NCBI GenBank assembly: GCA_038999725.1
Contig: JAWBWS010000004.1
Span: 717 to 64,716 of the forward strand
DNA length: 64,000 nucleotides
Source: Candidatus Aenigmatarchaeota archaeon
GTDB lineage: Archaea; Aenigmatarchaeota; Aenigmatarchaeia; CG10238-14; SCSR01
Direction: 5' to 3'
In this document: positions 7,530 through 47,758 of the stretch, piece after piece
Numbering within the stretch: the stretch's first letter is position 1
Layout of the letters: each line of letters begins with the position of its first letter
Notes under the pieces: generated by a model
Database searches by the model: none
Seen by the model: only the letters and a program-made list of their open reading frames with translations
Told to the model about the DNA's origin: nothing
Made by a program: the position numbers and the translations under genes

Positions 7530-8198
7530 TCAGGATTTCACCTCATATTTTTCAGTTAAAATCTTCCTAATTTTTTTGGCAAGCTTTTCTCCAATTCCTT
7601 TCACAGACCTTAACTCATCTTCACCAGCAGAAAAAACTTTTTCCACAGAGCCAAATTTCTCCAGTAGCCTTTTTGACAGAACTGTAGAAATGCCTGGAAT
7701 GCTTGAAACAATAAATTCTTTAATCTTCTCTTTGTCTTCAGGTTTTTTCCCAACTTTAAATGCTAAAGCAAATTTTTTTTCTTCTTGCTCTTTCTTTGCT
7801 ATCCAGTATATTATCTTTGCTGTATCTAGCTCATTCCTCGTGCTTATCAAGCTAATCCCAAAATCTATTACTAAGCTTGCTATTGCTGCCTTCAAAGAAT
7901 TTTCATTTATTTTTCTTGTCGAATAACCTTCCATTAAGATTATTGGCTTTTCAAAATTTTTCTTAAGCTCACTAGCTTGCTCGAAAATTCTACCATCAAT
8001 TATGGAAGAAATGAAATCATCATAAGATTTTCTTTCAATTACAACTCTCTTGCTACAAACAAAATCGCCACACTCGAGGTCCATTTCATTCACTGTAGCT
8101 CCAATTTTCTTCAGGATTTCACCAACCTCACTTTCCCTGTAATCACAAATAACCATAACTTTATCTCTTGAGCTCAAAACCATTTGTTTTTCACCCAC
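7530..8198 (-). CDS. xpf: XPF/ERCC4-family nuclease with C-terminal HhH2 (stand-alone Hef nuclease module)
   Basis: ERCC4 motif ECGDFVCSKRVVIERKSYDDFISS (GDxn-ERKx3-D). C-terminal helix-hairpin-helix: SIPGISTVLSKRLLEKFGSVEKVFSAGEDELRSVKGIGEKLAKKI. Confidence 0.8.
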   Translation of the reverse strand: MGEKQMVLSSRDKVMVICDYRESEVGEILKKIGATVNEMDLECGDFVCSKRVVIERKSYDDFISSIIDGRIFEQASELKKNFEKPIILMEGYSTRKINENSLKAAIASLVIDFGISLISTRNELDTAKIIYWIAKKEQEEKKFALAFKVGKKPEDKEKIKEFIVSSIPGISTVLSKRLLEKFGSVEKVFSAGEDELRSVKGIGEKLAKKIRKILTEKYEVKS

Positions 8199-8255
8199 AT
8201 CATCACTTTCTTCAAATTTCGAATTATTAATTTATAACTCCTAAAGTGGTTAAAT

Positions 8256-9797
8256 TCATGTCAACCAATCTTTTAAACTCACTTTCTTTTTGCTCCTTTT
8301 CTTCATATCATACAAAATTCCCTTCATCTTCTTTTCTTTCTGGAAAGCAGCCCAGTAATATGATTCATCTCTTGTGTCCTTTGTCAAGAGAAAAATTACT
8401 TTCCCCTCACTTTGTCTTCCAACTCTTCCTTTTCTTTGTATATTTCTAATTTCACTTGGCACACTCTCGTAAAAAATGGCATAATCAGTAGCGACTATAT
8501 CCAAACCTTCCTCTCCTATGCTTGTTGTGACCAAAACATTAAATTCACCATCTCTAAACCTTCTTAAGACTTCAATTTGTTCTTGCTGCGTCATCCCTTT
8601 CTCTTCTTTGTTTGCCTGTCCTATTAATATCTCGGATTTTATTCCCTCCTTCTTCAGAGTTTCATTTATTTTTTCCACAGTAGCTCTGTAATTTGCGAAA
8701 ACTATAATTTTCGCCTTGGAATTTTCCCTCAATAAATCATTAATCAAAAATCTGAGTTTTGTAAGTTTAGGATGTTCTACTCCATTTTTTCTTATTTTTT
8801 CTATAAGTCTCAAAACCTCTTTCATTCTCACATCATTTGCAATCTTCTTGTCAACCCTTTTTTTACTTTTCATAAACTTTTGTAGGTAATCATAAAGAGA
8901 TGAAATTTCCTGTGTTTCAAGAAGTTCCATAGCATGCTCAATTTTTATCGCTTCAGCTAGCTTCATCATCGCCCAAGCAAGCGTGTAATTTTTCGAGCCT
9001 TGCATGTATTTAGCCGCAATAACATTCTGTAAATTGAGCAAGAGCTTTTTTGGTGGCCTGCTCGTGTTGAGGAAGCCGTGATCTTTAAGCCAAGCTATTG
9101 GCTCTTTCAGCATTTGCTCAAGCAAACCTTTAATCATTTTCATCTCTTCTGGCAAATCAACATAAATCCAGTCTTTGAATATAGGTTTCACATACACCTT
9201 AACATCTTCATCAGCTTCTGTTCTTATTTCAACAGCTTCTATGAAAAGATTTTCTTTTATTTCTTCAATTCTTTCAAAGCTACCGCCAGGAGAGGCTGTC
9301 AAGCCAAGAATTAAAGGGCGCTTTGCCTGTTCTTTATATTTCTTTGCAACAAAAGTGTAAGAATACTCTTTCACACAACGGTGGCATTCGTCGAAAACTG
9401 CCAAAGAAAAATTTTCCAAATTAATTCTTCCAGCCTCCAAATCATTCTCAATTGTTTGTGGTGTTGCAATTATCACCTTGCTTTTTTGGTAAATTTCACT
9501 CCTCTTTTCAGGTTTTATTTTTCCTGTAACGAGGGCAATTTCCTCTTCTTTCAAATCTGTAAACTTTTCAAAGCTTTTTTTATGTTGAGCATTTAAAGGT
9601 CTAGTTGGTGCCATCACCAATACCTTGCTTTCAGGAAAATCGTTAAGCCTTTTTATTGCAACAATCATAGCTATTAGAGTTTTCCCCATCCCAGTTGGTA
9701 ACACAACTAAAGTGTTTTTCTTACTTGCAGTTTCTGCTATATTTTTTTGATATTCTCTTGGTTCGATATCCTTTAAGCTTGTCATACTATTCTCCAA
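8256..9797 (-). CDS. hef: Hef/FANCM-family DEAH-box helicase (helicase module only)
   Basis: Walker A PTGMGKT, DECH box (AVFDECHRC), TASPG motif, inserted helical domain, and helicase C motifs (VTTSIGEEGLDI, QRKGRVGR). It lies immediately upstream of the separate ERCC4 nuclease gene. Confidence 0.8.
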   Translation of the reverse strand: MENSMTSLKDIEPREYQKNIAETASKKNTLVVLPTGMGKTLIAMIVAIKRLNDFPESKVLVMAPTRPLNAQHKKSFEKFTDLKEEEIALVTGKIKPEKRSEIYQKSKVIIATPQTIENDLEAGRINLENFSLAVFDECHRCVKEYSYTFVAKKYKEQAKRPLILGLTASPGGSFERIEEIKENLFIEAVEIRTEADEDVKVYVKPIFKDWIYVDLPEEMKMIKGLLEQMLKEPIAWLKDHGFLNTSRPPKKLLLNLQNVIAAKYMQGSKNYTLAWAMMKLAEAIKIEHAMELLETQEISSLYDYLQKFMKSKKRVDKKIANDVRMKEVLRLIEKIRKNGVEHPKLTKLRFLINDLLRENSKAKIIVFANYRATVEKINETLKKEGIKSEILIGQANKEEKGMTQQEQIEVLRRFRDGEFNVLVTTSIGEEGLDIVATDYAIFYESVPSEIRNIQRKGRVGRQSEGKVIFLLTKDTRDESYYWAAFQKEKKMKGILYDMKKRSKKKVSLKDWLT

Positions 9798-21698: not shown

Positions 21699-21995
21699 TC
21701 ATCCTTTCCTACAATATTCACAAACTATTTTCTGAAAGCTTGATCTCTTGAAAGTTTTGCTCTCAATTGCTTTAACGATTTCTTCAGAAATTTTTCTTGC
21801 AGCCTTACTTTTTTCCAGCTTTTTTATTTCCTTCGTGTATTTTCCAGACAAATACTTGCTTATTGCTGCTTGAGTTAAGCCAAGCTTTTTTGCTATTTCT
21901 TCCTGCTTTAGGCCTTTAGCATAGAGTAACTTTGCTGTTCTCACTCTAACAGCTGGAATTATTTGTCTTACCATGACTTCACAAAGCACAGACAT
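21699..21995 (-). CDS. Small HTH transcriptional regulator with C-terminal CxxC, upstream of iscS-iscU
   Basis: HTH segment QEEIAKKLGLTQAAISKYLSGK and a C-terminal ...IVCEYCRKG. It is co-directional with iscSU and lies immediately upstream. Confidence 0.5.
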   Translation of the reverse strand: MSVLCEVMVRQIIPAVRVRTAKLLYAKGLKQEEIAKKLGLTQAAISKYLSGKYTKEIKKLEKSKAARKISEEIVKAIESKTFKRSSFQKIVCEYCRKG

Positions 21996-22107
21996 GATAA
22001 TTTTTTACAACTTGGTTATATTTATGCTTTAAAGTCAGCTTTAAATCTTCTAGAAAAAAGATTTTTAAATGAAGTATTTAAGATTAATTTAAGGAGTTTG
22101 AAAGTGT

Positions 22108-22310
22108 GCGCCAGTAGTCTAGTCTGGTAGGACACGAGAAGTTTTTCGTGAACTTCCCAAGTTTGGAGAGAGCTTGGGACCCGGGTTCAAATTTGAGTGA
22201 GGATATGTTTAAAGTTTTGATAAGAATAGGTTTAAAATACAAATAGGTTTTACATCTTGAGAAAATGCTAAAATTGCTGTCCTCACTCAATGAAAATCCC
22301 GGCTGGCGCA
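22108..22310 (+). tRNA. Intron-containing tRNA (identity unresolved) with a ~110-nt insertion at the T-loop
   Basis: Acceptor GCGCCAG (22108–22114) pairs with CTGGCGC (22303–22309), followed by discriminator A. D-arm GTCT-AGTCTGGTA-GGAC. T-stem CCGGG plus loop TTCAAAT (22181–22192) is separated from its partner CCCGG (22298–22302) by an insertion bounded by the inverted repeats TTGAGTGAGGA ... TCCTCACTCAA. The anticodon region contains hairpins with 8–9-nt loops, so the anticodon cannot be assigned by eye. Confidence 0.6.
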
Positions 22311-22565
22311 CTTAATCCATGCTTCAATTCTCTTTTTCCTAAGACTAAGTCAAACCAAAAACTCTTCCCATAAATTCTCAAATTTTCTAAACATTTTATC
22401 TCTAAGTTTTTCGAATTCAGACTTAAACTACTTGATTCTGTTGAAAGACTCTATCTTTAGAAAATGGAAGATTAGAATAAATAAAATTAAGTTGAGTATA
22501 ATAATAATTATGAAAAAGAAGGAGGTTGACAAAATTGAAATTTTGTCCAAATTCCTGAAAAAGAG

Positions 22566-23811: not shown

Positions 23812-24492
23812 ATGAAGCTACCCTTGATTCTAATAAATTTCAAGTGTTATGTTTCTGGTAGGAAAGCTTACAGGCTTGCAAAAATTTGTGAAGAGGTAGT
23901 TGAAAAATTTGATGTTAACATAGCAGTTGCTCCCCAGTTCACGGACATAGCGACAATAACAAAAAATTTGAAAATAAGTGTTTTCGCTCAACACATGGAT
24001 GCAATAGAGGAAGGAGCTTTCACAGGCCACATAAGCGGGAAAGCTTTGAAGGAAGCTAAGGTAAATGGGGTTATCCTAAACCATTCTGAGAAAAAAATGG
24101 GCTTGGATGAAATTGAGAAATGTGTGAAAATTGCAAAAAGGTTAAGACTAATCACAGTTTGTTGCGCTAGCAACTTAGAAGAAGGAAAAGAAATAGCAAA
24201 TTTTAAGCCAGATTTCTTGGCTTATGAAGATCCTTTTTTGATTGGGACAGGAAGAGCAATTTCTAGAGTCAAGCCGGATAGTGTGAGAGAATTTGTTGAG
24301 GTTATGGGGAAAATTGAACCTGAAGTAAAGGTTTTGTGTGGAGCTGGAATTTCTTCTGGTGAAGATGTAAAAAAAGCTTTAGAGCTTGGTACTGTAGGCG
24401 TGCTTGTTTCTTCAGCTGTGGTTAAATCAAAAAACCCTAGAAAAGTGTTGGAAGAATTTTGTAAAATTTATAGAATAGAAAATAAAATCTAA
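23812..24492 (+). CDS. tpiA: Triosephosphate isomerase (archaeal short type)
   Basis: ~225 aa with LILINFKCY, the catalytic region GVILNHSEKK (His–Ser–Glu), and a GAGISSGEDV phosphate-binding loop. Confidence 0.85.
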   Translation: MKLPLILINFKCYVSGRKAYRLAKICEEVVEKFDVNIAVAPQFTDIATITKNLKISVFAQHMDAIEEGAFTGHISGKALKEAKVNGVILNHSEKKMGLDEIEKCVKIAKRLRLITVCCASNLEEGKEIANFKPDFLAYEDPFLIGTGRAISRVKPDSVREFVEVMGKIEPEVKVLCGAGISSGEDVKKALELGTVGVLVSSAVVKSKNPRKVLEEFCKIYRIENKI

Positions 24493-24497
24493 TAATT

Positions 24498-25241
24498 ATG
24501 AAGCTGAAAGACAAAGTTGCTGTTGTAACTGGTGCTGGTCAGGGTATAGGAAGAGAAATTGCTCTAGCTTTTGCTAGGGAAGGGGCAAAAGTTGTTGTCA
24601 CAGATATAAGTGGAAAGGAAGAAGAAGTGGCAAGAGAAATAGAAAGTCTGGGAAGGGAGGCTTTAGCTCTAAAGCTTGATGTTTCCAGCAATGAAGATGC
24701 AAAAAAAATGGCAGAAGAAGTCTTGAAGAAATTTGGAAGAATTGACATTCTTGTGAACAATGCTGGAATATTCCCATTCAAGCCTTTTCTCGAGATGGAG
24801 GAAAAAGATTGGGAAAAGGTTTTAAATGTAAACTTGAAGGGGACTTACAATTGCACTAAAGCTGTTGTTGGTGCAATGATTCAGCAAAGGTATGGTAAGA
24901 TAATCAACATTTCTTCAATAGCTGGTTCTGTTGTTGGCTTTCAGCATCTTGTCCACTATTCGGCAAGCAAAGCTGGCATAGTAGGTTTCACAAGAGCTTT
25001 GGCTTTAGAGCTAGCTCCCTTTGGAATAAACGTGAATGCCATAGCTCCTGGTCCAATAGAGACTCCCGGAACAAAAGCTTTAGGTACAGAGATGTACGAG
25101 CAGATAAAGAAAGCTATACCAATAGGAAGATGGGGGAAACCTGAGGATATAGCAAACTTAGCAGTTTTTCTTGCAAGCGATGAATCAAGCCTCATAACAG
25201 GGCAGTGTATAGTTGCAGATGGTGGCTACACACTTCAGTGA
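24498..25241 (+). CDS. Short-chain dehydrogenase/reductase (FabG/glucose dehydrogenase-like)
   Basis: TGAGQGIGREIA Rossmann motif, NNAG, and catalytic S...YSASKAG tetrad. Confidence 0.85.
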   Translation: MKLKDKVAVVTGAGQGIGREIALAFAREGAKVVVTDISGKEEEVAREIESLGREALALKLDVSSNEDAKKMAEEVLKKFGRIDILVNNAGIFPFKPFLEMEEKDWEKVLNVNLKGTYNCTKAVVGAMIQQRYGKIINISSIAGSVVGFQHLVHYSASKAGIVGFTRALALELAPFGINVNAIAPGPIETPGTKALGTEMYEQIKKAIPIGRWGKPEDIANLAVFLASDESSLITGQCIVADGGYTLQ

Positions 25242-25737
25242 TATTTTATAAGAAACTTGCGCTGAAGGTATTCGTAAGCTGAAAGAACAGCTTTGGCTCC
25301 TTCGCCAGCCACAATTATCTACTTCCATTTCACATCAGTCACATCACCAGCAGCAAACAAACCAGCTATGTTGGTCTTACAGTTTTGGTCTATATCTATT
25401 TCTCCCTTTTTGCTTAGCTTGGCTTAAGACAGATCATGATTATAACACCTTCTACATTCAATTTCAAAACTTCTTTTGTTTCAAATTCTAGGGTTGTTGA
25501 AGATTTTAACAAAACTAAGTTTTTTCACACTATCCCTTAAGATTTCCTCACTCTTAGGTCTTGGACCAATATGTTTTTCTTTTTGTTGAGATCTTGAAAA
25601 GTTCCTTCTCTTTACTCACTTCTTTCAACATCTGTAGACAAACTGACTTGGCCACCAACATCGAGAGTTACAAGCAGTTATTCCAGCAAGGCTAGCACCA
25701 ACTATGATGCAATCATAAGGCACGATGCTTTTTTTCC
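25234..25737 (-). pseudogene. Decayed thioredoxin-reductase-like flavoprotein gene (pyridine nucleotide-disulfide oxidoreductase remnant)
   Basis: Minus-strand fragments in different frames: an N-terminal FAD fold (ME)KKSIVPYDCIIVGASLAGITACNS with a frameshift inside an A7 run at the start codon; DVGGQVSLSTDVE (GGQ motif); a C-terminal GEIDIDQNCKTNIAGLFAAGDVTDVKW; then IVAGEGAKAVLSAYEYLQ. Stops lie between the fragments and the total length is about half that of an intact trxB. Its 3' end overlaps the SDR gene stop. Confidence 0.6.
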
Positions 25738-25780
25738 ATAAAATATATTTAGCCAATTAAACAAAATAATTAAGGATACT

Positions 25781-26818
25781 ATGCCGATAAAAGTTGTTGT
25801 CAATGGTGTTGGCACAATTGGAAAAAGAGTTGCCCAAGCAATTAAGCTTCAGGATGATATGAAGCTTGTTGGCATATCAGATGTTGCACCCACAAGCTGG
25901 CTGAGAACTGTACTTGAACCAAAAGGCCCTTTGTACAAAACTGACCTCTACGCTTCCAATCAAGATGGAATGAAGGCTTTGACTGAAGGTGGAATGTATG
26001 TCAAAGGTTTTCTCGAAGACTTGCTAGCCTCTGGTGAAGTTGATGTTGTATGTGATTGCACACCTGCAAAGATTGGAGAGAAGAACAAACCCTTGTACCA
26101 AAAATACAAGGTGAAAATGGTCTTCCAAGGTGGGGAAAAACCTGAGGTTGCTGATTTAAGTTTTGTGGCAATAGCAAATTACGAGAAGGCTTTGAACAAA
26201 GATTCTGTTAGGGTTGTAAGTTGCAACACAACCTCACTTGTAAGGACAATCTTCACCATAGATCAAAAATTTGGAGTAGAAGAGGTTTTTGCTGCTTTGG
26301 TGAGAAGGGCAACAGACCCTTGGGATGAAAGGTCTGGCCCAATAAATGCAATTGTTCCCGAGACTCACGTTCCCTCCCATCAAGGTCCTGATTTACAAAC
26401 AGTGTTGCCTCATATAAACATAAAAACTATGGCAGTGAAAGTTCCTTCAACTTTGGCTCATTTACACATGGTCATAGGCAAAATCAAGAAGCAAGCAAGC
26501 AAGGAAGAGTTCAAAAAAGCTTTTGAAGAGGGTTCAAGGATGATATTGCTCAAGGCTTCTCACGGCTATACTGCAACTTCTGAAATAATAGAGAGATATA
26601 GAGATCTTTGCAGGCCAAGGTATGACATGTATGAAGTTGCGATTTGGGACGAATCTGTAACAGTAGAAAAAAATAGATTCTACTGGATGCACGCCGTACA
26701 TTCAGAAGCCATAGTTATCCCTGAAACTATAGATGCGATAAGAGCAATAACAGGAATTGAAACCGATAAGTTTAAGTCGATAGAAAAAACAAACAAGAGC
26801 TTGGGAATTGAGAAGTGA
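25781..26818 (+). CDS. gap: Glyceraldehyde-3-phosphate dehydrogenase (archaeal type)
   Basis: VVNGVGTIGKRVAQAI N-terminus, catalytic region VSCNTTSL, ~345 aa. Confidence 0.9.
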   Translation: MPIKVVVNGVGTIGKRVAQAIKLQDDMKLVGISDVAPTSWLRTVLEPKGPLYKTDLYASNQDGMKALTEGGMYVKGFLEDLLASGEVDVVCDCTPAKIGEKNKPLYQKYKVKMVFQGGEKPEVADLSFVAIANYEKALNKDSVRVVSCNTTSLVRTIFTIDQKFGVEEVFAALVRRATDPWDERSGPINAIVPETHVPSHQGPDLQTVLPHINIKTMAVKVPSTLAHLHMVIGKIKKQASKEEFKKAFEEGSRMILLKASHGYTATSEIIERYRDLCRPRYDMYEVAIWDESVTVEKNRFYWMHAVHSEAIVIPETIDAIRAITGIETDKFKSIEKTNKSLGIEK

Positions 26819-28058
26819 ACTCATGAAAGAATATTTTACCTTAGAAGATTTTGAGTTAGAGGGAAAAACTGTTCTGTTGAGAGCAGATTTGAATGCACCT
26901 TACAACAAAAAAGAGAAAAGAATAGAAGATTGTGATAGGATAAGGGAGCATGCAAAGACCATAAAATTTTTAATTGAGAAAGGAGCAAAAGTTGTTGTTA
27001 TTGCTCACCAAGGAAGGAAAGGGGAGGAGGATTTCACAAGCTTAGAGCAACATGCGAAACTTTTGAGCAAACATTTGGGAAGAGAAGTAAAATTTGTTAA
27101 TGATGTTATTGGAGAAAAAGCTTTAAATGAAATAAAGAATTTAAAAGAGGGTGAAGTCCTGCTTCTGGAGAATGTAAGGTTTTTGGAAGAGGAAACTCAA
27201 GAGAAAAGTCCTGAGGAACATTCTAAGAGCAAGCTTGTACAAACTTTAGCTCCACTTGCTGATCTTTTCGTTCAAGATGCTTTTTCTGCATCTCACAGGT
27301 CTCATGCTTCTATTGTTGGTTTTGCACCCCTTTTGCCAACAGTTGCTGGTAAAATCATGGAAAAAGAAATAAGCTCAGTGGAAAAGGTTTTGCAGCCTGA
27401 AGCAAATGTTTTCATCCTAGGGGGAGCAAAACCTGATGATTGCTTGAATATAATGGAGCACTTTCTTGAGAAAAAGCTGGAATGTGTGGAAAAAGTTTTG
27501 ACTTGTGGCACTGTTGGTGAAGTCTTCTTGATGGCAAGGGGCTACAAGTTAGGTAAAGCTACAGAAAAATTTTTTGAAGAAAAAGGATTTTTAGACTTAA
27601 TACCTCAGGCAAAAAGGCTTTTGGATGAACATCAAGAAAAAATAGAAATTCCGAAAGATGTTGCTGTGGAAGAGGGAGGGAGAAGAAAAGAGGTTGATAT
27701 AGAAGAACTACCTTCAAGTTCAATGATTCTTGACATAGGAAGGAAAACCATTGAAAATTACGTTAAAATCATAAATAGGGCTAAAACAATAGTTGTGAAA
27801 GGTCCAGCAGGAGTTTATGAAAAAGAGGGGTTTGAAGTTGGAACCAGGGAAATTCTTGAAGCTATAGCCAATTCAAAAGCTTTCAGTTTGATTGGTGGTG
27901 GAGATACCGGGCTAGCAATAGAAAAGCTTGGTATAGGGGGAGAAAAATTCTCTTACATAAGCTTGGGTGGCGGAGCCTTGATAACCTACCTTTCAGGAAA
28001 GCCTATGCCTGGAATAGAAGCCTTGAAACTATCTTACCAGAAATTTAAGGAAAAATAA
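26808..28058 (+). CDS. pgk: Phosphoglycerate kinase
   Basis: GKTVLLRADLNAP, VIAHQGR, and C-terminal GGGDTG...SLGGGA motifs. Confidence 0.9.
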   Translation: MRSELMKEYFTLEDFELEGKTVLLRADLNAPYNKKEKRIEDCDRIREHAKTIKFLIEKGAKVVVIAHQGRKGEEDFTSLEQHAKLLSKHLGREVKFVNDVIGEKALNEIKNLKEGEVLLLENVRFLEEETQEKSPEEHSKSKLVQTLAPLADLFVQDAFSASHRSHASIVGFAPLLPTVAGKIMEKEISSVEKVLQPEANVFILGGAKPDDCLNIMEHFLEKKLECVEKVLTCGTVGEVFLMARGYKLGKATEKFFEEKGFLDLIPQAKRLLDEHQEKIEIPKDVAVEEGGRRKEVDIEELPSSSMILDIGRKTIENYVKIINRAKTIVVKGPAGVYEKEGFEVGTREILEAIANSKAFSLIGGGDTGLAIEKLGIGGEKFSYISLGGGALITYLSGKPMPGIEALKLSYQKFKEK

Positions 28059-28083: not shown

Positions 28084-29028
28084 ATGTTTGATGTCGTTTG
28101 TATTGGCCATGTTCTTTATGATACAAGGTCTTTTGTTGAAGAATTCCCGAAGCCTGACAAAATGACATTCGTCAAGGGCACAATCACCCATAGCATAGGC
28201 GGTTCTGCCACAAATGTTGCTTGTAATCTTTCCAAGCTTGGGATGAAAACTGCCCTGATTGGGAAAATAGGATATGATGATCATGGCCAATACTTGCTCA
28301 GTCAATTGAAATTCTATGGCGTTGAATCAAAATACATTAAAATAACAACTGAAAAACCTACAGGAGTTTCGATGATAGTTATAGATAAAAGTGGAGAGCC
28401 TCTCTTATTTGAGATGGTTGGTGCAAATGAACCCCTACACAAAAGTGATATATCAAAGGAGGCTATAGAAAATTCTTCTCATGTACACATGAGTGGTACA
28501 ACCCTGGAAGCTTTGGCTCACGCTGCTAAACTTGCAAAAAAATTGAATAAAACTGTTTCTTTTGACCCAGGGAGAAGCAAATCTCAAGAAGGATTCAAGA
28601 AGCTTTACAAGATTTTAAAAAATGTAGACATTTTGATAACAACCAAAGTTGAAGCAATAAGGATTGTTGGCAACCCAAGTTACGACTTTCAAAAAGCCGT
28701 AGAATTTTTGAGGGAGAAAATGAAAGGAAAGATGATTATAGTTAAGAGTGGGAAGGATAAGACCCTTGTCTATTTAGATAAGAAGGCTTTTTCAGTTTCT
28801 ACCATTCCAGTAAAAGTTGTGGACACCATAGGAGCTGGTGATGCTTTTACTGCTGGCTTCTTGCATAAGTTTTTGCAAAAAGAAAAAATTGAAGAGTGTG
28901 TAAAGTTTGCAAATGCTTGTGGTGCTTTGAAAGTTACAAAAGAGGGGGCTGTTGGCTTGCCTTTCAAGGATGAAGTTTATGCTTTTTATAAAAAGGTTGA
29001 GAAAAAAATTGAAGTAGAGGGAATTTGA
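28084..29028 (+). CDS. PfkB-family carbohydrate kinase (candidate sugar-phosphate/6-phosphofructo- or tagatose-6-P kinase)
   Basis: Ribokinase-like fold with an N-terminal GG (IGGSATNVA) and a C-terminal anion hole DTIGAGDAFTAGF. Confidence 0.8.
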   Translation: MFDVVCIGHVLYDTRSFVEEFPKPDKMTFVKGTITHSIGGSATNVACNLSKLGMKTALIGKIGYDDHGQYLLSQLKFYGVESKYIKITTEKPTGVSMIVIDKSGEPLLFEMVGANEPLHKSDISKEAIENSSHVHMSGTTLEALAHAAKLAKKLNKTVSFDPGRSKSQEGFKKLYKILKNVDILITTKVEAIRIVGNPSYDFQKAVEFLREKMKGKMIIVKSGKDKTLVYLDKKAFSVSTIPVKVVDTIGAGDAFTAGFLHKFLQKEKIEECVKFANACGALKVTKEGAVGLPFKDEVYAFYKKVEKKIEVEGI

Positions 29029-29871
29029 TTGAGTTTGGAGAAAATTTCTTCCAAAGGTTTTTTCCACATCGTCGCTTTAGATCACAGACAATCTCTCAAA
29101 AAAATGATAAACCCAAGAAATCCTGAGTCTGTATCAAGAAAAATTTTGGAACAAGTGAAGCTTAAACTCTCTAAAGCTTTTTCTCCCCAAGCTTCTGGAA
29201 TTTTGCTAGACCCTATATACGGGATGACAGCTATTAAAGCGATAAGAGATAAGTGTGGCTTGATAGTCTCTCTTGAAGAGTCTGGCTACAAAGAAACTAG
29301 GGAAGGAAGAACAACATCTTTAATCAAAAATTTTGGGCCAGAAAAAGTTAAGAGGATTGGTGGGGATGCCGCCAAGCTTTTGATATATTTCAACCCAAAG
29401 GCAAAAAAAGCCAAACAGCAAAAAAAGCTTGTAGAATATGTTGCTACAAGATGTAAAGAAATAGAATTACCATTTGTTTGTGAGTTTCTCATTTACCCAT
29501 ACAAGGAAAGGGACTTTGAAAGGGAGAGGAGCAAACTGATAATTCAATCTGTAAAAGAGATTTCAAGGCTTGGCATAGATTTACTTAAAACAGAATTTCC
29601 GGGCAAGCTTGATGAAAAAGCAGAAGTTAACTGTAAAAAACTTGCAAAAGCTAGCAAAGTCCCTTGGGTCTTGTTGAGCAAAGGAATAAGCTTTGAAGAA
29701 TTCAAGGAACAATTGAAATTTTCCATGAAATTTGGATGCTCAGGTTTTGCTGTTGGTAGAGCATTGTGGCAAGAGTATTTTCAAGTAAAAAATAAAGAAG
29801 AATTTTTGAGAGAAGTTTGTTTGAAGAGATTGAAAGAATTGAAAGAAATAGTAAGCGAAAAATTCATTTGA
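29029..29871 (+). CDS. Class I aldolase of the LacD/DeoC-like family (tagatose/fructose-bisphosphate aldolase-like)
   Basis: GFFHIVALDHRQSLKKMI resembles the LacD AIDQRGSLRKML substrate-binding N-terminus. TIM-barrel length; alternative TTG start. Confidence 0.55.
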   Translation: MSLEKISSKGFFHIVALDHRQSLKKMINPRNPESVSRKILEQVKLKLSKAFSPQASGILLDPIYGMTAIKAIRDKCGLIVSLEESGYKETREGRTTSLIKNFGPEKVKRIGGDAAKLLIYFNPKAKKAKQQKKLVEYVATRCKEIELPFVCEFLIYPYKERDFERERSKLIIQSVKEISRLGIDLLKTEFPGKLDEKAEVNCKKLAKASKVPWVLLSKGISFEEFKEQLKFSMKFGCSGFAVGRALWQEYFQVKNKEEFLREVCLKRLKELKEIVSEKFI

Positions 29872-31111
29872 TTTTATCTTGAGAAAACAGGGAAGTGAAT
29901 ATCTTAGTCTTCAAATCGGCCACAATTCTCATGAAATTTGCAAAACTTTCCTCTGGGCTTGAGAAGCAGCTGAAATATTTGTGGACATCACCATCAGCCC
30001 ACATCTTGTTACACATGTAGTAATAATGATCGCTTGTTAGCAAGTACTTCCAAACCTTTTTCATCTCCCCATCGTTTACTTCCCTCAAAAGCTTTCCCAA
30101 ATTCTTTACTTCTTCAAAACAAGTTTGTTGCATCTTATTGCCTAGCCAAGCAGAAACATCCCTCTCCATGTCGGCCCAGGAGACTGTTGAAAACTCAAAA
30201 ACATCTATTTCACCTATGGGCTTAATTTTTTCCACAATTTCACTTGGTGTTGCAAACTCCAAATTCTCATATTTCAAAACTTCATAGGGCAAAGCTTTCA
30301 AGAACCAGAAAATTCCAGATTCTGCCCATTGATGCTCACCGAAAGTTTCAAAATCCATGAAAATATTTATGCATTCACCCGGAGTTGCATTAAGCCAGGC
30401 TGCAAATTTATCAGCGGTTAAAGGCCACTGGTCCCAATTCATTGCTGAAAATCTATAACCAATGTCGTCGCTAAGCCTATAATTCCTTAAGAGAATTCTT
30501 ATCCTTTTATCCCAATCTCTATCATCCGGAAAGCAAAACTTCCTCACATAAATGTAATTTGGTGATCTCCATCCAAGAATTCTTTCAGCACCTTCTGTGA
30601 AAATTGCCTTGAATCCCAAATCTTCAACTATTCTACCAATAACATTGTTATATATCATTTCAGTATTCACGAAGACCCTCGGCTTAACACCGAATAAATC
30701 TTTCATTGTTTGGGAGTGAAGATTTACCTCTTCCACAAATTCTTCTTTTGTATCAAAAAGGCTTGACAAAGAATGATGATAAGTTTCACCAATTATTTCA
30801 ACCTTCTTTGTTTTCACAAGTTGTTTGAAATTCTCGAGAACATCTTTGCCATATTTTTCACAAAGTTCGAGAAAAACCCCACTGATTGCAAAATTCACCT
30901 TGAACTGCTTCTTTTCATGCTTAAACTTATCTATCAGCTCAAGCAAGATGTTTGTTGTTGGTAGATAGCACCTATCTCTGACTTTTTCAAAGATCATTTT
31001 ATTCAAGCCTGAATTGAAATAGCTATTCATATCTTTAGAAATTCCATCTGTTTGAAAATTGGCCAATCTTATGGGCTGATGTACTTGGAAGCTTAAGGTA
31101 ATCAGAACCAT
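29864..31111 (-). CDS. Glycoside hydrolase family 57 protein (alpha-glucan acting)
   Basis: N-terminal LSFQVHQPIR (HQP signature of GH57); ~415 aa. Confidence 0.7.
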   Translation of the reverse strand: MVLITLSFQVHQPIRLANFQTDGISKDMNSYFNSGLNKMIFEKVRDRCYLPTTNILLELIDKFKHEKKQFKVNFAISGVFLELCEKYGKDVLENFKQLVKTKKVEIIGETYHHSLSSLFDTKEEFVEEVNLHSQTMKDLFGVKPRVFVNTEMIYNNVIGRIVEDLGFKAIFTEGAERILGWRSPNYIYVRKFCFPDDRDWDKRIRILLRNYRLSDDIGYRFSAMNWDQWPLTADKFAAWLNATPGECINIFMDFETFGEHQWAESGIFWFLKALPYEVLKYENLEFATPSEIVEKIKPIGEIDVFEFSTVSWADMERDVSAWLGNKMQQTCFEEVKNLGKLLREVNDGEMKKVWKYLLTSDHYYYMCNKMWADGDVHKYFSCFSSPEESFANFMRIVADLKTKIFTSLFSQDKIK

Positions 31112-31159
31112 AGTTATAATTATTTCTTATACCCCTTATAAATTTAACATTAGGGCAAC

Positions 31160-33130
31160 ATGAAAATTGAGGAAGTTAAGAACAAATGCTATTTGCTTTC
31201 CGGCAAAAAGGCTTTCTTCCACAGGTTTTGTGACTCAGGCTTTAAAACAAAATGGACAGGTTTTTGGTCTGAGTCAAGGAAATTTTTTGATTATTTTGCC
31301 TTTAGGGTGAATGAAAGTTGGTTGTCTCCAGAGAATTGTGTCGAGGTTGTTTTTGATGACTCAAGTTTCACACACATCTATTCTCTAGATGGAATAAAAG
31401 TAGTGGAAAAGCTATTTGTGCCGGAAGAAAGGAGGGCATTAGTTTGCAATCTGAGGATTGAAAGCAAAGAAATAAGGAGACTGAAAGTTTTCATGGAAGT
31501 TGGTGTAAACATAAGAGATAGGGAAGAAAATTGGCATGATAGAAAATATGTCGTGAAGAGGGAAGCTAACATGCTTATGGTGAATTCAGAGAAAGGTTGC
31601 CTTGCCATTGGATTTTCCAAACCTTTCGAAATTTCAGGAAAAGAAATTTACAAAGATCATTTCCCAGGTGAACTTGAAAGATGTTTCATTCCAGGTGCAA
31701 TTTCATTTGAAATTGAATGTGGAGATTCAAAAGAAGAGATCTCGATAATTTTTTCTTCTGGGAAAAACGAGACTGAAGCTATGGTTAATTTAGTTTCAAC
31801 TAAAAATTCTTTAGGCGAGGTTGAAATAGAAGAGTCAAAACCTTTCTTGGCTCTGGAATTTAAAACTGGTATTAAAGAACTAGACGATCTTTTCAGAAAG
31901 AGTGTTATTGGTTTAGAAAAACTTAAGGTGGAAGCCGAAGCCGGTTTTGGCTACATCGCAGGCTATCCCTGGTTCACACAATTTTGGGGGAGAGATTTGG
32001 GTTGGATGATCCCAGCTATTGTGGATTATGGGAATTTTGAAGATGCTAAAAAAGCTTTGATGACTTTGATGAAATTTCAGTCAAGGGAGGGGGAAATCCC
32101 AAACTTCATTTATTTGGATGGAAAACCTATTTATGGTTCAATAGATGCTACCCCACTTTGGATTATTGCCCTAAATCACTACATCCAAAACTCTGGAGAT
32201 TTGGAATTTTTGAAAGAAAGTAAGAAAAACATCATTAGAGCTTTTGGTTGGTGCATTAGCAAGAGTGATGACAAGCTAATGGAAGCTGAAAAAAGAGCAA
32301 CATGGATGGATAGTTTGGATAGAGATGGTAAACCGATTGAAGTTCAAGCAATTTGGTACGAATGTTTGCTTTCTCTCAAAAAACTTTCTGAGATTTTGGG
32401 AGAAAATTTGGTAGATTTTTCTTATGTGAAAGAGGTGGAGAGAAAAATAGAAGAAGATTTTTGGAATCCCTCCTCAAATTTTTACTTTGATAGGATTAAG
32501 TGGAAGTTTAAAGATGAAAAGAAAACCATAAACTCAATTTTCCCCCTTCTTTTTAAAATTTCAAAAAATCCGGTAGAAATTTTAAGAAGAATCGAGAGTG
32601 AAGAATTCACCTCGCCTTTTGGTGTGAGGAGCGTCTCGAAGAATGATCCAACATTCAATCCAATTGGTTATCATACCGGAAGCGTTTGGAGTTGGATAAC
32701 GGGTTTAGTGGCTTGTGTGGAATTTGGAGAAGATAGGGCAGAAAAAGGTCTTGAATACTTGAAGATATTATGGAAAATGTTTGACAGGAACTGTCTGGGA
32801 TCTTTAGATGAAGCTTGGAATTCGGAAAATGGTGATGCTGTGTTGCTGAAAGAAATTGGGTATGAACCTTCAGGCTTCTTCCAAGGTTGGGGGTTTGCCT
32901 CTGTGGTAAGGTGTTTAGATGAATTTATGCTTGGTCTTAAAGTTGATGCTCTCAACAAAACAATATTTGCTTCTCCTTCTCTAATAGATGGGATGAAAGT
33001 TTTGAGGGAAAAAAGGATTGGAAATGATATCGTCAAGATTTCAATGGAAAGAATAGGAGATGAATTAAAAGTGGTTCTTAAAAGTGGGAGAAAAAAAGGA
33101 TACAGGCTCATTAAAGTACCAAAGGCTTAA
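31160..33130 (+). CDS. Glycogen debranching enzyme (amylo-alpha-1,6-glucosidase, GDE C-terminal domain family)
   Basis: GYPWFTQFWGRDLGW motif plus an (alpha/alpha)6-barrel-like C-terminal half. Confidence 0.75.
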   Translation: MKIEEVKNKCYLLSGKKAFFHRFCDSGFKTKWTGFWSESRKFFDYFAFRVNESWLSPENCVEVVFDDSSFTHIYSLDGIKVVEKLFVPEERRALVCNLRIESKEIRRLKVFMEVGVNIRDREENWHDRKYVVKREANMLMVNSEKGCLAIGFSKPFEISGKEIYKDHFPGELERCFIPGAISFEIECGDSKEEISIIFSSGKNETEAMVNLVSTKNSLGEVEIEESKPFLALEFKTGIKELDDLFRKSVIGLEKLKVEAEAGFGYIAGYPWFTQFWGRDLGWMIPAIVDYGNFEDAKKALMTLMKFQSREGEIPNFIYLDGKPIYGSIDATPLWIIALNHYIQNSGDLEFLKESKKNIIRAFGWCISKSDDKLMEAEKRATWMDSLDRDGKPIEVQAIWYECLLSLKKLSEILGENLVDFSYVKEVERKIEEDFWNPSSNFYFDRIKWKFKDEKKTINSIFPLLFKISKNPVEILRRIESEEFTSPFGVRSVSKNDPTFNPIGYHTGSVWSWITGLVACVEFGEDRAEKGLEYLKILWKMFDRNCLGSLDEAWNSENGDAVLLKEIGYEPSGFFQGWGFASVVRCLDEFMLGLKVDALNKTIFASPSLIDGMKVLREKRIGNDIVKISMERIGDELKVVLKSGRKKGYRLIKVPKA

Positions 33131-33885
33131 TCAAACTCGTGGAAAATTTCGTCAAAAACTTCAGACTCTTTCCACGAGCTCAATATTTCTTTCAATTTTT
33201 CAGGTTCTTTTTTAGCAAGTTTTAAAACATCAAACTTTTTGATGTTTTTTATGAAAACAAGACCCACCTCTGGATATTTCTTGTTTTCTCTAAATTCTAG
33301 ATTTTTATTTTTATCGTAAAAAATGTGGAAGGGAAACCCTTTATTCTTCACCACGCTATAATCATGGCCAGCTATTTCATGAACAAAATTCAAGACCACA
33401 CAATCTTTTTTTCCTGAAATGAGCCTGTGTATGAAAAATGGGGGAATGAAAAAAGAATAACCTTCCTTAATTTCAATTAAGTAGCTGTTGAAGGTTTTTC
33501 TGTGGGAAAGAAGAAGATAGCAACCATTCTTCAGAGCCACATAAACTTCACCTAAATTCTCTTTATGGATATGACCATAAGTACAGAAGGCTTCACCTTC
33601 CTTTTTTAAAGAAAAAATTCCTTGCCTAAGTAGAGTTATGTCAACCATGACTCCAAAATTTTCGAGAAAATCTCTTGCAACATCTTGAAATTTCCATAAA
33701 TTGTAAACTTCATAAATTGTTAAATCTCCTTTTCTTTCCAAAAGTTCTTTTGCACTTTCCAAATCAAGTATAACCCTATCTTTCAAAAGTTCGGAAAGGT
33801 ATCTTTTCCGACACTCAACTTTCTTCCCGAAGTTCAAGCTCAATTTTTTTCCTTGTTTTTTTATTGAAAATCCAAAATCCATCAA
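33127..33885 (-). CDS. pgiA: Cupin-type glucose-6-phosphate isomerase (cPGI)
   Basis: Metal-binding cupin motif TYGHIHKENLGEVYVALKNG (TxGHxHxxxxxxExY), as in Thermococcales cPGI. It carries an N-terminal ~60-aa extension. Confidence 0.65.
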   Translation of the reverse strand: MMDFGFSIKKQGKKLSLNFGKKVECRKRYLSELLKDRVILDLESAKELLERKGDLTIYEVYNLWKFQDVARDFLENFGVMVDITLLRQGIFSLKKEGEAFCTYGHIHKENLGEVYVALKNGCYLLLSHRKTFNSYLIEIKEGYSFFIPPFFIHRLISGKKDCVVLNFVHEIAGHDYSVVKNKGFPFHIFYDKNKNLEFRENKKYPEVGLVFIKNIKKFDVLKLAKKEPEKLKEILSSWKESEVFDEIFHEFD

Positions 33886-33913
33886 AATAAATTTACCTTC
33901 TCAAATTAAAATT

Positions 33914-35146
33914 ATGGATGTTTGCTATATTCCTTGGCTTCATATGCATCAACCCCTCGTTTGGTTGAACAGCAAGATAGTCTCAAATTTGGAAAAAATG
34001 CTGAATTCAAAAAATGATAGGGAAAGTTGGGATGGTAAGTTGATTTTGAGAGCTTACAAGAATCCCGCCAAGTATGTGACAATGCTTGCCGAGGAAGGTT
34101 TTAAACCTAAAATAATGCTAGATTTTTCAGGAGTTCTTTTAGAGTCTCTTTTGGATTTGGATGAGAGGAAAATTTCTTCAGAAATTGAGGTTCATGGAGA
34201 GAAAATAGGCCCAATTTTAACCGCTTACAAAAAAGTTTTGAGGAAATTTCCAGAAAGCTTGGAATTTGTGGGCACAGCTTATTCCCACTGCTACTTCCCA
34301 GCAACTCCGGAAGAAGATTGGAAATTGCAAATAGAGAAATGGAGAGAAATTTTCAAAAAAATTTTCGGTTCAAGTGAATTGAAAAGGGTCGAAGGGTTTT
34401 GGCTCCCTGAGATGGGTGTACCAGGAAGAGAAGAAGTTTTAAGCAAGCTGATAAAATGTATGAGAGAATATTACGAGTGGATGATATTGCCTGTGCAGAG
34501 CATTCAAGGATATGAGAACTTGAGTTATGAAAAAATTGTGGAAATTTTTTGCAAACCTCATTTGTTGCAAGCTGGGAATGAGGAGATTGTAGTAGTATTT
34601 AGGGTACCTACTTACTTCATCGACCAACAAGCCGGATGTTCGCCAGATTTTTTGTACTCAAAGTGTTTAGAAGCTGAAAGGATATTTTCTAGGCTTAGCG
34701 GTAAGCCCGCATTACTTATTACTGCAAGTGATGGTGAGAATGGAAATGTGATGATGAATGAATTTTTCCCCCAAACCTTTGTTCCATTTTTTAGAGAGAA
34801 AATTGGAAAAAATGTTTTTTCCCTAACTGTGAGTGAATTTTTGGAAAAATTTTATGAAGAGGGAATAAAGGAGAAGATAAAGCTAAAAGATGTAGGTGCT
34901 TCGTGGGTAAATGGCCATGAAGCATGGATTGGAGGTGGGAGAAGAATTGAAGCGATTAAAAGAATATTTCAATTAAGCAAAAAATTTCATGAACTTAAAC
35001 CAGAACAAAAATCAAAGGTGGAAAAGTTGCTTTTGATTGCAGAGACAAGTTGCTATGTCTATTGGGGGATTGATTATTGGTTTGAACAAGGAAGAAAGTT
35101 TGCCTCTTATGCTGAAAGCATGATTAAAAGGTTAAAACCTGTCTAA
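33914..35146 (+). CDS. GH57-like alpha-glucan enzyme (second paralog)
   Basis: IPWLHMHQPLVW N-terminal HQP signature; ~410 aa. Confidence 0.6.
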   Translation: MDVCYIPWLHMHQPLVWLNSKIVSNLEKMLNSKNDRESWDGKLILRAYKNPAKYVTMLAEEGFKPKIMLDFSGVLLESLLDLDERKISSEIEVHGEKIGPILTAYKKVLRKFPESLEFVGTAYSHCYFPATPEEDWKLQIEKWREIFKKIFGSSELKRVEGFWLPEMGVPGREEVLSKLIKCMREYYEWMILPVQSIQGYENLSYEKIVEIFCKPHLLQAGNEEIVVVFRVPTYFIDQQAGCSPDFLYSKCLEAERIFSRLSGKPALLITASDGENGNVMMNEFFPQTFVPFFREKIGKNVFSLTVSEFLEKFYEEGIKEKIKLKDVGASWVNGHEAWIGGGRRIEAIKRIFQLSKKFHELKPEQKSKVEKLLLIAETSCYVYWGIDYWFEQGRKFASYAESMIKRLKPV

Positions 35147-35228
35147 ATTTATGTAGAAAAATTTTTTCTAAAGAATGATAAATTTATAAACAAGCGCCAC
35201 AAACAATTTAATAAGTGTTGGTGTAGTT

Positions 35229-36401
35229 ATGAGGATAGGCTTCTTTTGTTGGGAATCTCTCCACTCGATACCAGTAGGTGGGATGGGTGTTGCTGTAACC
35301 GAGCTTGCTGCTGCTCTTGAAAGAAAAGGAAATGAAGTTCATGTTTTCACAAGAATAGGACAAAATCAAAAGGTTTATGAAGTTGTCGATGGAGTACATT
35401 ATCACAGATGTCCATTTAACTTTTCTCCAAATTTTTTTTATGAGATGACAAATAACATGTGCAAGTCCATGGCTTACCATTTCTTTGAAACAGAAAATGT
35501 CTCTGGGGCCTTTGATATAATTCATGGACACGACTGGCATGTTGTGAATGCTCTGGATGAAATAAAAAAAGCAAGAAACAAAAGGGTTGTTTTCACTCTC
35601 CACTCAACCCAATTTGGGAGGGATGGAAATCATTTTCACGATGGTGTGGCAAAGGATATAACAAATCTTGAATGGTATGGAGCTTACATAGCTGAAAGAG
35701 TTGTAGTCTGTTCAAATACGATGAAGGAAGAAGTGCAAAGAATTTACAGAGTGCCTGAAGATAAAATTAGAATTGTACCAAATGGAGTATGGGCAAGAAA
35801 TTTTGATGGTTTTGTTGATGCATGGAAAGACGTGAAATCACATCTTGGAATTGGTGTTTATGATCCAATGATAACTTTTGTTGGAAGGATGACTATTCAG
35901 AAGGGTCCAGACTTGCTCGTTGAAGCCATTCCAGATGTTTTGAAAGATTTTCCAAATGTTAAGTTTGTTTTTGTTGGTGATGGTTACATGAAACCTCAAT
36001 TAGAAAGGAGGGTAAAAGAACTTGGCGTACAGCATGCTGTGAGATTTACAGGTTATGTTCCAGATGAATGGAAAACTAAAATAATGAAGGCCTCTGAGTG
36101 TATAGTTGTGCCAAGCAGGAATGAACCTTTTGGAATAGTTGTTCTGGAAGCTTGGTCATGCTACAAACCAGTGTTAGCCACCCATGGCACAGGATCTGGA
36201 GAACTTGTTTGGCATGATGTCACAGGTTACAGAGTTTACCAAGCTCCAAACTCTATAGCCTGGGGAATAAAAGAAATTTTGAGAAATCCTGAGCATGCGA
36301 GATGGATGGGAAAGAATGGAAGGTATGCTGCTGAAAACACCTTCACTTGGGACAAAGCTGCTGAAAAGCTTTTGTCTATTTATCAAGAAATAGTGAGGTG
36401 A
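35229..36401 (+). CDS. GT4-family glycosyltransferase (glycogen-synthase-like)
   Basis: N-terminal ESLHSIPVGGMGVAVTELAAALERKGNEVHV and a C-terminal E-x7-E-like region (PSRNEPFGIVVLEAWSC). Confidence 0.75.
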   Translation: MRIGFFCWESLHSIPVGGMGVAVTELAAALERKGNEVHVFTRIGQNQKVYEVVDGVHYHRCPFNFSPNFFYEMTNNMCKSMAYHFFETENVSGAFDIIHGHDWHVVNALDEIKKARNKRVVFTLHSTQFGRDGNHFHDGVAKDITNLEWYGAYIAERVVVCSNTMKEEVQRIYRVPEDKIRIVPNGVWARNFDGFVDAWKDVKSHLGIGVYDPMITFVGRMTIQKGPDLLVEAIPDVLKDFPNVKFVFVGDGYMKPQLERRVKELGVQHAVRFTGYVPDEWKTKIMKASECIVVPSRNEPFGIVVLEAWSCYKPVLATHGTGSGELVWHDVTGYRVYQAPNSIAWGIKEILRNPEHARWMGKNGRYAAENTFTWDKAAEKLLSIYQEIVR

Positions 36402-36405
36402 GAAG

Positions 36406-36627
36406 ATGAAGTGTTGGTTTTGTGAAAAGGAGGCTCGGGGCGTTTGCATAGTTTGCGGGAGAGCAGTTTGTCATGAGCATGCAGACAAACTCGATCAATT
36501 CACCCATGCAAAATCAGATACTTGCAGCGGTTTCGCAAGTTATGAAAAGGGATTTAATGTGTTGAAATGTAGAGAATGTAAGCTTGAGTGGGAGAGCTGG
36601 GAGCAGGGGAAGAGAGTAATCAGGTGA
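36406..36627 (+). CDS. Small Cys-rich zinc-ribbon protein
   Basis: CWFCEKEARGVCIVCGRAVCHEH...CRECK gives four CxxC pairs in 73 aa. Confidence 0.5.
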   Translation: MKCWFCEKEARGVCIVCGRAVCHEHADKLDQFTHAKSDTCSGFASYEKGFNVLKCRECKLEWESWEQGKRVIR

Positions 36628-37543: not shown

Positions 37544-37579
37544 ATAATTTAATAGGGAATCAAAACTAAATTTAGTTTT

Positions 37580-39082: not shown

Positions 39083-39083
39083 T

Positions 39084-40304: not shown

Positions 40305-40308
40305 TTAA

Positions 40309-41118: not shown

Positions 41119-41150
41119 AAATGGAAAAGACAAATTGAGATTCTGAGAAG

Positions 41151-41579
41151 ATGAAAAGAGAAAAGGCAAAAGTTGTGTTCACCGTGGGAAAAAGAAAGAG
41201 GGCAATAGCTAGAGCAAAAGTTGTCCCTGGTACAGGAAGAGTTATAATTAACTCTAAACCTTTGGAAATTTGGGGGAATGAATACATGAGGCTTCGTGTC
41301 AAAGAACCTTTGCTTTTATCAGAAGATTTGGGTGGAAAGCTTGATTTTTATGTGAATGTTAAAGGTGGTGGTACAACAGGTCAGACAGAGGCTATAAGAA
41401 CAGCTATTGCAAGAGGTTTGGTAGAGTTTTCAAAAGACAAGAAGCTTGAAGAAAAGCTCTTGAATTATGATAGGAATCTGCTCGTCTTTGACTTCAGAAG
41501 AACAGAGCCTCACCATGGTAGCGGAAGGGGAGCAAGCAAGCGTGGCTCAAGACGTCATAAACAGAGGAGTAAGAGATAA
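41151..41579 (+). CDS. rps9: 30S ribosomal protein S9
   Basis: GGGTTGQTEAIRTAIARGL and a C-terminal RSKR tail. Confidence 0.9.
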   Translation: MKREKAKVVFTVGKRKRAIARAKVVPGTGRVIINSKPLEIWGNEYMRLRVKEPLLLSEDLGGKLDFYVNVKGGGTTGQTEAIRTAIARGLVEFSKDKKLEEKLLNYDRNLLVFDFRRTEPHHGSGRGASKRGSRRHKQRSKR

Positions 41580-41582
41580 AAG

Positions 41583-41855: not shown

Positions 41856-41997
41856 TTTCTCAATTTTCCCTTAAACTTTAATCTATTTAATTCTTTCTAT
41901 TTCTCATGAAAACTGTAAAAAAGTAATATATTAATGTGCAAATTTTTCCTTTTAAACTATCAATCTTTTAGTTAAAATTCCAAATAATTTATTTTAG

Positions 41998-43374: not shown

Positions 43375-43384
43375 AGGGAAGTTT

Positions 43385-45406: not shown

Positions 45407-45420
45407 CCTTGTCTTCCCCT

Positions 45421-47712: not shown

Positions 47713-47758
47713 AAATTTATGAAAAAAGCTTAAATATTTAAGTTCTATCTGATTCTTT

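Follow-up and report, generated by a model that had tools for sequence, protein, structure and literature searches.

A tRNA-Gly(CCC) gene with three predicted bulge-helix-bulge introns, missed by standard detectors, in a Candidatus Aenigmatarchaeota genome

Known disrupted tRNA genes and the host of the locus

Multiple-intron tRNA genes of the Thermoproteales were described by Sugahara et al. (2007/2008) and are reviewed in PMC4033280 and PMC4090602. Three introns per tRNA gene is the documented archaeal maximum (PMC4033280), and positions 29/30, 30/31 and 59/60 are among the documented non-canonical intron sites in archaea (PMC4090602). In DPANN lineages, L3-loop EndAs are found alongside more disruption of tRNA genes and incomplete predicted tRNA sets, and the L1 loop is not found in DPANN EndA (PMC5829648).

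Here we describe a 203-nt locus at 22108-22310 on the plus strand of a 64-kb window, the window being the whole stretch of DNA analysed. The locus is very probably a functional tRNA-Gly(CCC) gene, presumably expressed, with four exons and three protein-spliced introns of the bulge-helix-bulge (BHB) type; its exon-intron boundaries, tRNA identity, motif geometry and conservation among relatives are established directly. Judged by its sequence, it is a multiple-intron BHB-type tRNA gene in which all testable defining features are present, and it represents a peculiarity already known from archaea, not a novel type of element. The initial annotation of this DNA had been correct in pointing to multi-intron archaeal tRNA genes as the context. 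The three intron positions, 30/31, 37/38 and 59/60, are all listed in PMC4090602. In the literature that we searched, no description of multi-intron tRNAs in Aenigmatarchaeota specifically was found.

As in the Thermoproteales, ordinary tRNA finders miss the gene and intron content varies among close relatives. In contrast, the Thermoproteales host is a crenarchaeon, while the present host belongs to the DPANN Aenigmatarchaeota, and its EndA is probably not the crenarchaeal (alpha-beta)2 type with an L1 loop, because L1 is absent from DPANN (PMC5829648). Moreover, Thermoproteales introns form families across tRNA genes, whereas no sequence sharing with other tRNA introns was detected here. The pre-tRNA-Cys(GCA) of ARMAN-2 (Candidatus Micrarchaeum), which has an epsilon2 EndA (PMC3239211, PMC5829648), likewise comes from a DPANN archaeon and carries a T-loop intron at 59/60, and a broad-specificity endonuclease would be needed in both cases; however, the ARMAN-2 intron has a relaxed hBH motif, whereas the motif of the T-loop intron described here is of the strict hBHBh' form, its inner helix being 13 bp long. 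The tRNA-Glu(UUC) of Methanopyrus kandleri combines a D-loop HBh' intron with a 37/38 intron (PMC5829648), and thus resembles our gene in having canonical and non-canonical introns together and a relaxed non-canonical motif, but it has two introns instead of three, at other positions and in another lineage.

The host is a tiny hot-spring archaeon represented by a metagenome-assembled genome (MAG) of Candidatus Aenigmatarchaeota (DPANN). Its archaeal and DPANN affiliation follows from the archaeal-type SSU rRNA that begins at 63835 in the window (Rfam), from the NCBI name Candidatus Aenigmatarchaeota on the window's own L13 protein, and from the 54-66% identity between proteins of the window and those of two Aenigmatarchaeota loci (L002 and L005). 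The window also contains genes for the archaeal ribosomal proteins L18e, L13 and S9.

Exon-intron structure and splice motifs

The acceptor, D-arm and T-arm pieces of a tRNA can be read intact in the locus, as the initial annotation had stated. The acceptor strands GCGCCAG (22108-22114) and CTGGCGC (22303-22309) are followed by A73 at 22310, and the D arm, GTCT-AGTCTGGTA-GGAC, occupies 22117-22133. The T-stem strands, CCGGG (22181-22185) and CCCGG (22298-22302), lie exactly where they had been placed and are separated by an insert. CCA is not encoded at the gene end, CTT coming next after A73. The insert ends in an inverted repeat, in which TTGAGTGAGGA (22193-22203) pairs with TCCTCACTCAA (22280-22290), extending to 13 bp in the fold. 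The long T-loop insert with terminal inverted repeats thus stands as first described, but the removable segment is 105 nt, not about 110 nt. The anticodon region is too long, as had also been noted: the interval between the D and T arms is 46 nt versus 21 expected, an excess of 25 nt (about 24 nt in the earlier estimate) over a normal anticodon arm and variable loop.

Standard detectors do not recognize the locus. ARAGORN called the tRNA-Ser at 13148 as the sole tRNA of the window, and it returned no tRNA for the raw sequence of 22108-22310, even with -i, -i0,200, lowered thresholds or -io. At gathering score, Rfam found the tRNA-Ser at 13148, an intron-bearing tRNA at 60470-60575 and the start of the archaeal SSU rRNA at 63835 in the window; the raw 22108-22310 sequence gave no tRNA at gathering score or at E<=10, the matches being to snoRNA and miRNA models by chance.

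Enumeration of deletions in the 46-nt interval, taking a 5-bp stem and a U33/R37 loop as the criterion for a canonical anticodon arm, showed that no single deletion yields such an arm. Two deletions produce CGAG^C-TTCCCA^A-GCTTG (carets mark splice sites). An alternative two-intron parse, CGAAC-TTCCCAA-GTTTG, was rejected: no central helix forms at its junctions, and CGAGC...GCTTG is what the intron-less orthologs have. Together with the geometry described below, the enumeration gave the following structure and flanking elements.

22075-22082, plus strand: TATA-like box TATTTAAG, inferred from sequence, its centre about 29 nt 5' of the gene.
22108-22138, plus strand: exon 1, tRNA positions 1-30 (5' half of the acceptor stem, D arm, position 26 and CGAG, with which the anticodon stem starts).
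22139-22152, plus strand: intron 1, 14 nt, AAGTTTTTCGTGAA, at position 30/31.
22153-22159, plus strand: exon 2, tRNA positions 31-37 (C31 and TTCCCA, containing the anticodon CCC).
22160-22170, plus strand: intron 2, 11 nt, AGTTTGGAGAG, at the canonical position 37/38.
22171-22191, plus strand: exon 3, tRNA positions 38-59 (A38, GCTTG as 3' strand of the anticodon stem, the 4-nt variable loop GGAC, CCGGG and T-loop TTCAAA).
22192-22296, plus strand: intron 3, 105 nt, in the T loop at position 59/60.
22297-22310, plus strand: exon 4, tRNA positions 60-73 (T60, CCCGG, CTGGCGC and A73).
22334-22338, plus strand: T run TTTTT, about 25 nt 3' of the gene, likewise read from the sequence; this flank is kept in L023.

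The TATA-like box is probably the archaeal promoter of the gene, and A/T-rich TATA-like boxes occur at comparable distances in the orthologous loci. The TTTTT run is possibly an archaeal transcription stop.

Removal of the three introns gives a 73-nt product with a full cloverleaf, which ARAGORN calls tRNA-Gly(CCC), an identity that the initial annotation had not given. The product has G1-C72, C2-G71, G3-C70 and A73, which we take to fit the identity elements of glycine tRNA. When prokaryotic genomes, one per species, were scanned for the D arm with TTCCCAA after it, eight archaeal tRNA-Gly(CCC) genes were obtained, among them an intron-less gene in a MAG labelled Candidatus Nanoarchaeia (L006). 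The spliced product is identical to this gene at all 73 positions, and the L006 gene scores 67.2 bits over the full Rfam tRNA model RF00005 (gathering score, 29). The product is also 72/73 identical to the syntenic intron-less genes of L018 and L023, and exon 1 is colinear with the intron-less orthologs of L006, L018 and L023. A canonical tRNA fold is obtained once the three segments are removed and not before, which favours introns. A split or permuted gene of the Nanoarchaeum, Caldivirga or Cyanidioschyzon type was also considered and set aside, since the four exons are colinear, on one strand and inside 203 nt.

The initial annotation was right that the anticodon region is interrupted; however, it had proposed, besides the T-loop intron, either a second intron of the non-canonical kind or an atypical anticodon loop of 8-9 nt. 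When the T-loop insert alone is removed, ARAGORN does return an odd tRNA-like fold, which lends this proposal some support, but the fold is malformed ('tRNA-???/Glu', its anticodon undetermined or 'Glu(ttc)') and includes an 'intron' of 2 nt as well as a long extra arm. The proposal is almost certainly wrong, since single deletions fail as described above and two anticodon-region introns, at 30/31 and 37/38, give a perfect arm that matches the intron-less orthologs base by base. The two hairpins that had been named do exist; the real anticodon loop, TTCCCAA (22154-22159 plus 22171), lies between them. The first hairpin corresponds to the central helix of intron 1 with one extra pair. The second (CCCAAG/CTTGGG) is an alternative pairing that is not conserved, being lost in L016 and L021.

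We modelled each splice motif as an outer helix, a 3-nt bulge, a 4-bp central helix, a 3-nt bulge and an inner helix, with the cut after the second bulge base and the central helix taken as bases -6 to -3 before each splice site; this arrangement is our own reconstruction of the standard BHB motif. Intron boundaries were fixed by the intron-less genes, and equivalent registers were then compared. For each intron, exactly one register gives 4/4 central pairs. When the introns were shuffled, the three junctions jointly reached 4/4 central pairs at a frequency of 5e-5 (20,000 trials).

Intron 1 pairs CACG (22133-22136) with CGTG (22147-22150), 4/4 in a unique register, and has bulges AG^A and AA^C, a 2-bp inner helix and a 3-bp outer helix; its motif is relaxed and nearly loop-closed. 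Intron 2 pairs TTCC (22154-22157) with GGAG (22165-22168), 4/4 in the 37/38 register only, and has bulges CA^A and AG^A. It is of the relaxed bulge-helix-loop form: its inner helix is 0 bp, its 5' splice site lies within a 7-nt loop, and its outer helix is 1 bp as counted in the unspliced gene and becomes the anticodon stem after intron 1 removal. The fit of introns 1 and 2 is to be read with the caveat that they have no real inner helix and that intron 2 is very short, at 11 nt. Relaxed loop-closed forms of this kind are termed BHL/hBH (PMC5829648).

Intron 3 has a strict hBHBh' motif. Its central helix pairs TTCA (22186-22189) with TGAA (22291-22294), 4/4 in a single register out of five equivalent ones. 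Each of its two bulges is AA^T; the 5-bp T stem serves as outer helix, and the inner helix has 13 bp (22193-22205 with 22278-22290). The inverted repeat, which the initial annotation had suspected of forming BHB helices, is thus the inner helix of the intron 3 motif. In the fold, intron 3 appears as the T stem, a 7x7 internal loop and the long inner helix (z = -4.65).

The minimum-free-energy (MFE) fold of the whole precursor has z = -6.3, and the motifs of introns 1 and 2 are absent from it. This fold prefers the hairpins CACGAGA/UUUUCGUG and a 10-bp UCCCAAGUUU/GAGCUUGGGA helix that buries the anticodon. It forms the hairpins named in the initial annotation, and therefore the splice-competent shapes of introns 1 and 2 are not the thermodynamic optimum.

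The same central-helix geometry is seen in the introns of L016, L022, L019, L020, L010, L007 and L008; in L021 the central pairs are 4/4 for intron 1 and 3/4 for intron 2. By manual parsing, the motif model also fits the accepted 37/38 intron of the tRNA at 60470-60575, with 2/4 pairs in the central helix. That gene, tRNA-Met(CAT) on the plus strand, carries a 33-nt intron whose inner helix, CATCT/AGATG, is correctly placed. The relaxed motif of this canonically placed intron again suggests a tolerant endonuclease.

From the motifs, we infer the cleavage by EndA, the ligase and the order of cuts as follows. The precursor would be transcribed as a single RNA, and archaeal EndA would cut the paired 3-nt bulges, or a bulge and a loop, that flank each 4-bp helix. 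An RtcB-type RNA ligase would join the exons, and CCA would be added after exon joining. The strict motif of intron 3 would stack on the T stem, while the relaxed loop-closed motifs of introns 1 and 2 would need an EndA of broad specificity. The precursor would also have to refold between cuts, because the central helix of intron 1 uses tRNA bases 25-28 and so excludes the full anticodon stem under the intron 2 motif. Among the approximately 57 ORFs of the window, no Pfam match to EndA (tRNA_int_endo) or RtcB was found.

Orthologous genes and intron turnover

Orthologous loci were fetched with two anchors, the L13 gene and the divergently transcribed HTH-regulator gene beside the tRNA gene. 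The closest L13 relatives (L011-L015) have a rearranged neighbourhood without tRNA-Gly, and the HTH anchor worked instead. The genomic neighbourhood of the window gene is common to L016-L022. The intron content of the genes compared was as follows.

L018 and L023: no introns; 72/73 identical to the spliced window product.
L019: the T-loop intron only, 109 nt, a homolog of intron 3 at position 59/60; its ends are identical to those of intron 3, and its middle has diverged.
L016, L017, L022 and L021: intron 1 (13-14 nt) and intron 2 (10-12 nt), placed as in the window gene, and no others.
L020: a single intron, 13 nt, at 41/42 (CAAG/CTTG).
L010 (metagenome contig): a single intron, 15 nt, at 29/30 (ACCT/AGGT).
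L007 and L008: short introns at 59/60, unrelated to intron 3, with the same TTCA/TGAA helix.

The near-invariant mature tRNA-Gly(CCC) is encoded with 0, 1, 2 or 3 introns at four positions across the relatives found, and among the orthologs found all three introns are combined only in the window gene. A metagenome scan that required intron 1 in its exact exon context gave no match, and a looser pattern returned one distant case, L010. On the same contig (Ga0066650_10146913), a tRNA-like gene (GGGCCGGTGGTCTAGTGG...CCGGCCCACCA) lies directly 3' of tRNA-Gly at 760-880 of L010; its anticodon region contains long inserts, and it probably represents a further tRNA with several introns.

Among the four relatives with introns 1 and 2, intron 1 keeps its central-helix and 3'-bulge bases, CGTG and AA, while its loop bases vary, the 5' part reading AAGTTTTT, AAGTTTT or AAAAATTT. 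For intron 2, GGAG is retained in L016 and L022, whereas L021 has GGAT, and the 5' part reads AGTTT, AGAAT, AGAA or AGGTTA. Between the L016 exons and those of the window, the differences are compensatory and fall in the acceptor stem (6-67 and 7-66) and the T stem (49-65). The motif bases of introns 1 and 2 kept in the four relatives, with the matching ends of intron 3 in L019, indirectly favour excision of the introns in vivo. Kept motif bases, free loops and compensatory exon changes form the pattern expected under selection for splicing and for a functional tRNA.

This pattern bears on the possibility that the locus is a decaying tRNA-Gly pseudogene, in which three unrelated insertions have ended the production of a working tRNA. 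Rejection by the standard detectors, the burial of the anticodon in the MFE fold and a possible second, intact tRNA-Gly(CCC) copy elsewhere in the genome would all accord with decay. However, all 73 exon bases are identical to those of an intact gene, all three insertions have the correct splice-motif geometry, four diverged relatives still carry introns 1 and 2, whose motif bases are kept and whose loops are free, and the same architecture is found in a second gene of the window, tRNA-His. We therefore consider a pseudogene very unlikely and favour a functional gene with three introns.

The 105-nt T-loop insert has been found in two loci, the window and L019, and is absent from L016, L017, L018 and L020-L023. 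This distribution, together with the 11-13-bp terminal inverted repeats and with flanks that are mosaic (upstream nearest to L019, downstream nearest to the intron-less L023), would suit a MITE-like inverted-repeat element instead of a spliced intron. That origin is nevertheless most improbable, because no target-site duplication abuts the repeats, there is no second copy in the 64-kb window or any fetched locus, and the repeat is placed where the inner helix must be, beginning exactly 1 nt past the 5' splice site and stopping exactly 6 nt short of the 3' site. The unrelated short introns at 59/60 in L007 and L008, with their identical TTCA/TGAA helix, also speak against it. We accordingly retain intron 3 as an intron. 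Between the window and L019, its helices are identical, and no covariation was found. Inspection of intron 3 by eye for a C/D box or K-turn revealed no RUGAUGA, a CUGA in L019 only, and nothing convincing. The middle of the intron (22224-22252) contains two copies of a 9-mer, ATAGGTTTA/ATAGGTTTT, separated by about 18 nt; as this part is not conserved in the L019 homolog, the repeat probably has no function.

In the relatives found, introns 1 and 2 are never seen one without the other. A rough neighbour-joining tree built from the adjacent HTH protein (100 aa) places them in the deepest branch and in several others, and the two carriers of intron 3, the window and L019, are not sisters in it. 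The upstream flank of the window gene is closest to L019 (96/104 aligned bases), while the downstream flank is closest to the intron-less L023 (81/93 bases). These mosaic flanks suggest, speculatively, recombination or conversion around the gene.

L020 and L023 both come from assembly GCA_039000415.1, in which two contigs each have an HTH homolog beside tRNA-Gly(CCC), one copy with the 41/42 intron (L020) and the other intron-less (L023). Either two strains were binned together in this MAG or the locus is duplicated.

A short palindrome-like element, (A/T)(C/T)AACTTGGTTAT followed by ATTTAT(A/G), was observed at 22007-22019 and at equivalent sites in L016-L023. Located in the spacer that separates the tRNA gene from the divergent HTH-regulator gene (21699-21974, minus strand), it is kept in most orthologous loci, with substitutions in L022 and L023. 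It may possibly serve as operator and promoter of the HTH regulator itself.

A second hidden gene, the window and significance

A second hidden three-intron tRNA gene was observed at 62362-62487 on the plus strand, just 5' of the 16S rRNA gene; it was missed by ARAGORN and by Rfam at gathering score. The spliced sequence is tRNA-His(GTG) according to ARAGORN and has the His-specific G-1:C73 pair.

62362-62396, 62412-62416, 62432-62438 and 62460-62487, plus strand: exons of tRNA-His.
62397-62411, plus strand: intron A at 32/33, with central helix CAGG/CCTG.
62417-62431, plus strand: intron B at 37/38, with a CUGU/GCAG helix that is possible only once intron A has been removed.
62439-62459, plus strand: intron C at 44/45, with GCCU/GGGU, a 5-bp inner helix and a GAAA loop.

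Several other features of the window were observed. The glycolysis genes TIM, GAPDH and PGK (23812-28058) precede a dense glycogen and sugar-metabolism cluster at about 29000-43400, which encodes two GH57 enzymes, an amylo-1,6-glucosidase, glycogen-synthase-like GT5/GT4 enzymes, PfkB kinases, a cupin-type glucose-6-phosphate isomerase and a phosphoglucomutase. Three large adjacent ORFs, of 501 aa and 763 aa on the minus strand and 670 aa on the plus strand, lie at 43901-49771 and have no Pfam match at E<=1e-5. The minus-strand region 7530-9797 holds two separate, adjacent ORFs, one (8256-9797) for a Hef-like helicase and the other (7530-8198) for an ERCC4 nuclease with HhH domains. A 693-aa type IA topoisomerase (2786-4867, minus strand) has Toprim, Topoisom_bac and zinc-ribbon parts with no helicase domain attached, unlike the full reverse gyrase that adjoins the tRNA-Gly locus in L019.

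Our analysis also has consequences for annotation. Standard annotation of this DNA would lack two tRNA genes, tRNA-Gly(CCC) and tRNA-His, because neither is detected by ARAGORN or, at the curated threshold, by Rfam. Incomplete DPANN tRNA sets probably conceal disrupted genes (PMC5829648), and the present locus provides a worked example of disrupted DPANN tRNA genes hidden from annotation. The occurrence of two loop-closed relaxed motifs in one precursor predicts a broad-specificity EndA in Aenigmatarchaeota.

The syntenic orthologs with their differing intron content amount to a small natural experiment on the gain and loss of archaeal tRNA introns. It is conceivable, although on balance doubtful, that the locus is a snapshot of very recent, perhaps ongoing gain, loss and exchange of tRNA introns in Aenigmatarchaeota. 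If so, BHB introns would pass as whole units from one lineage to another, by movement or conversion, for instance through recombination involving spliced or unspliced copies, and the strongly conserved ends of intron 3 might have a role beyond splicing.
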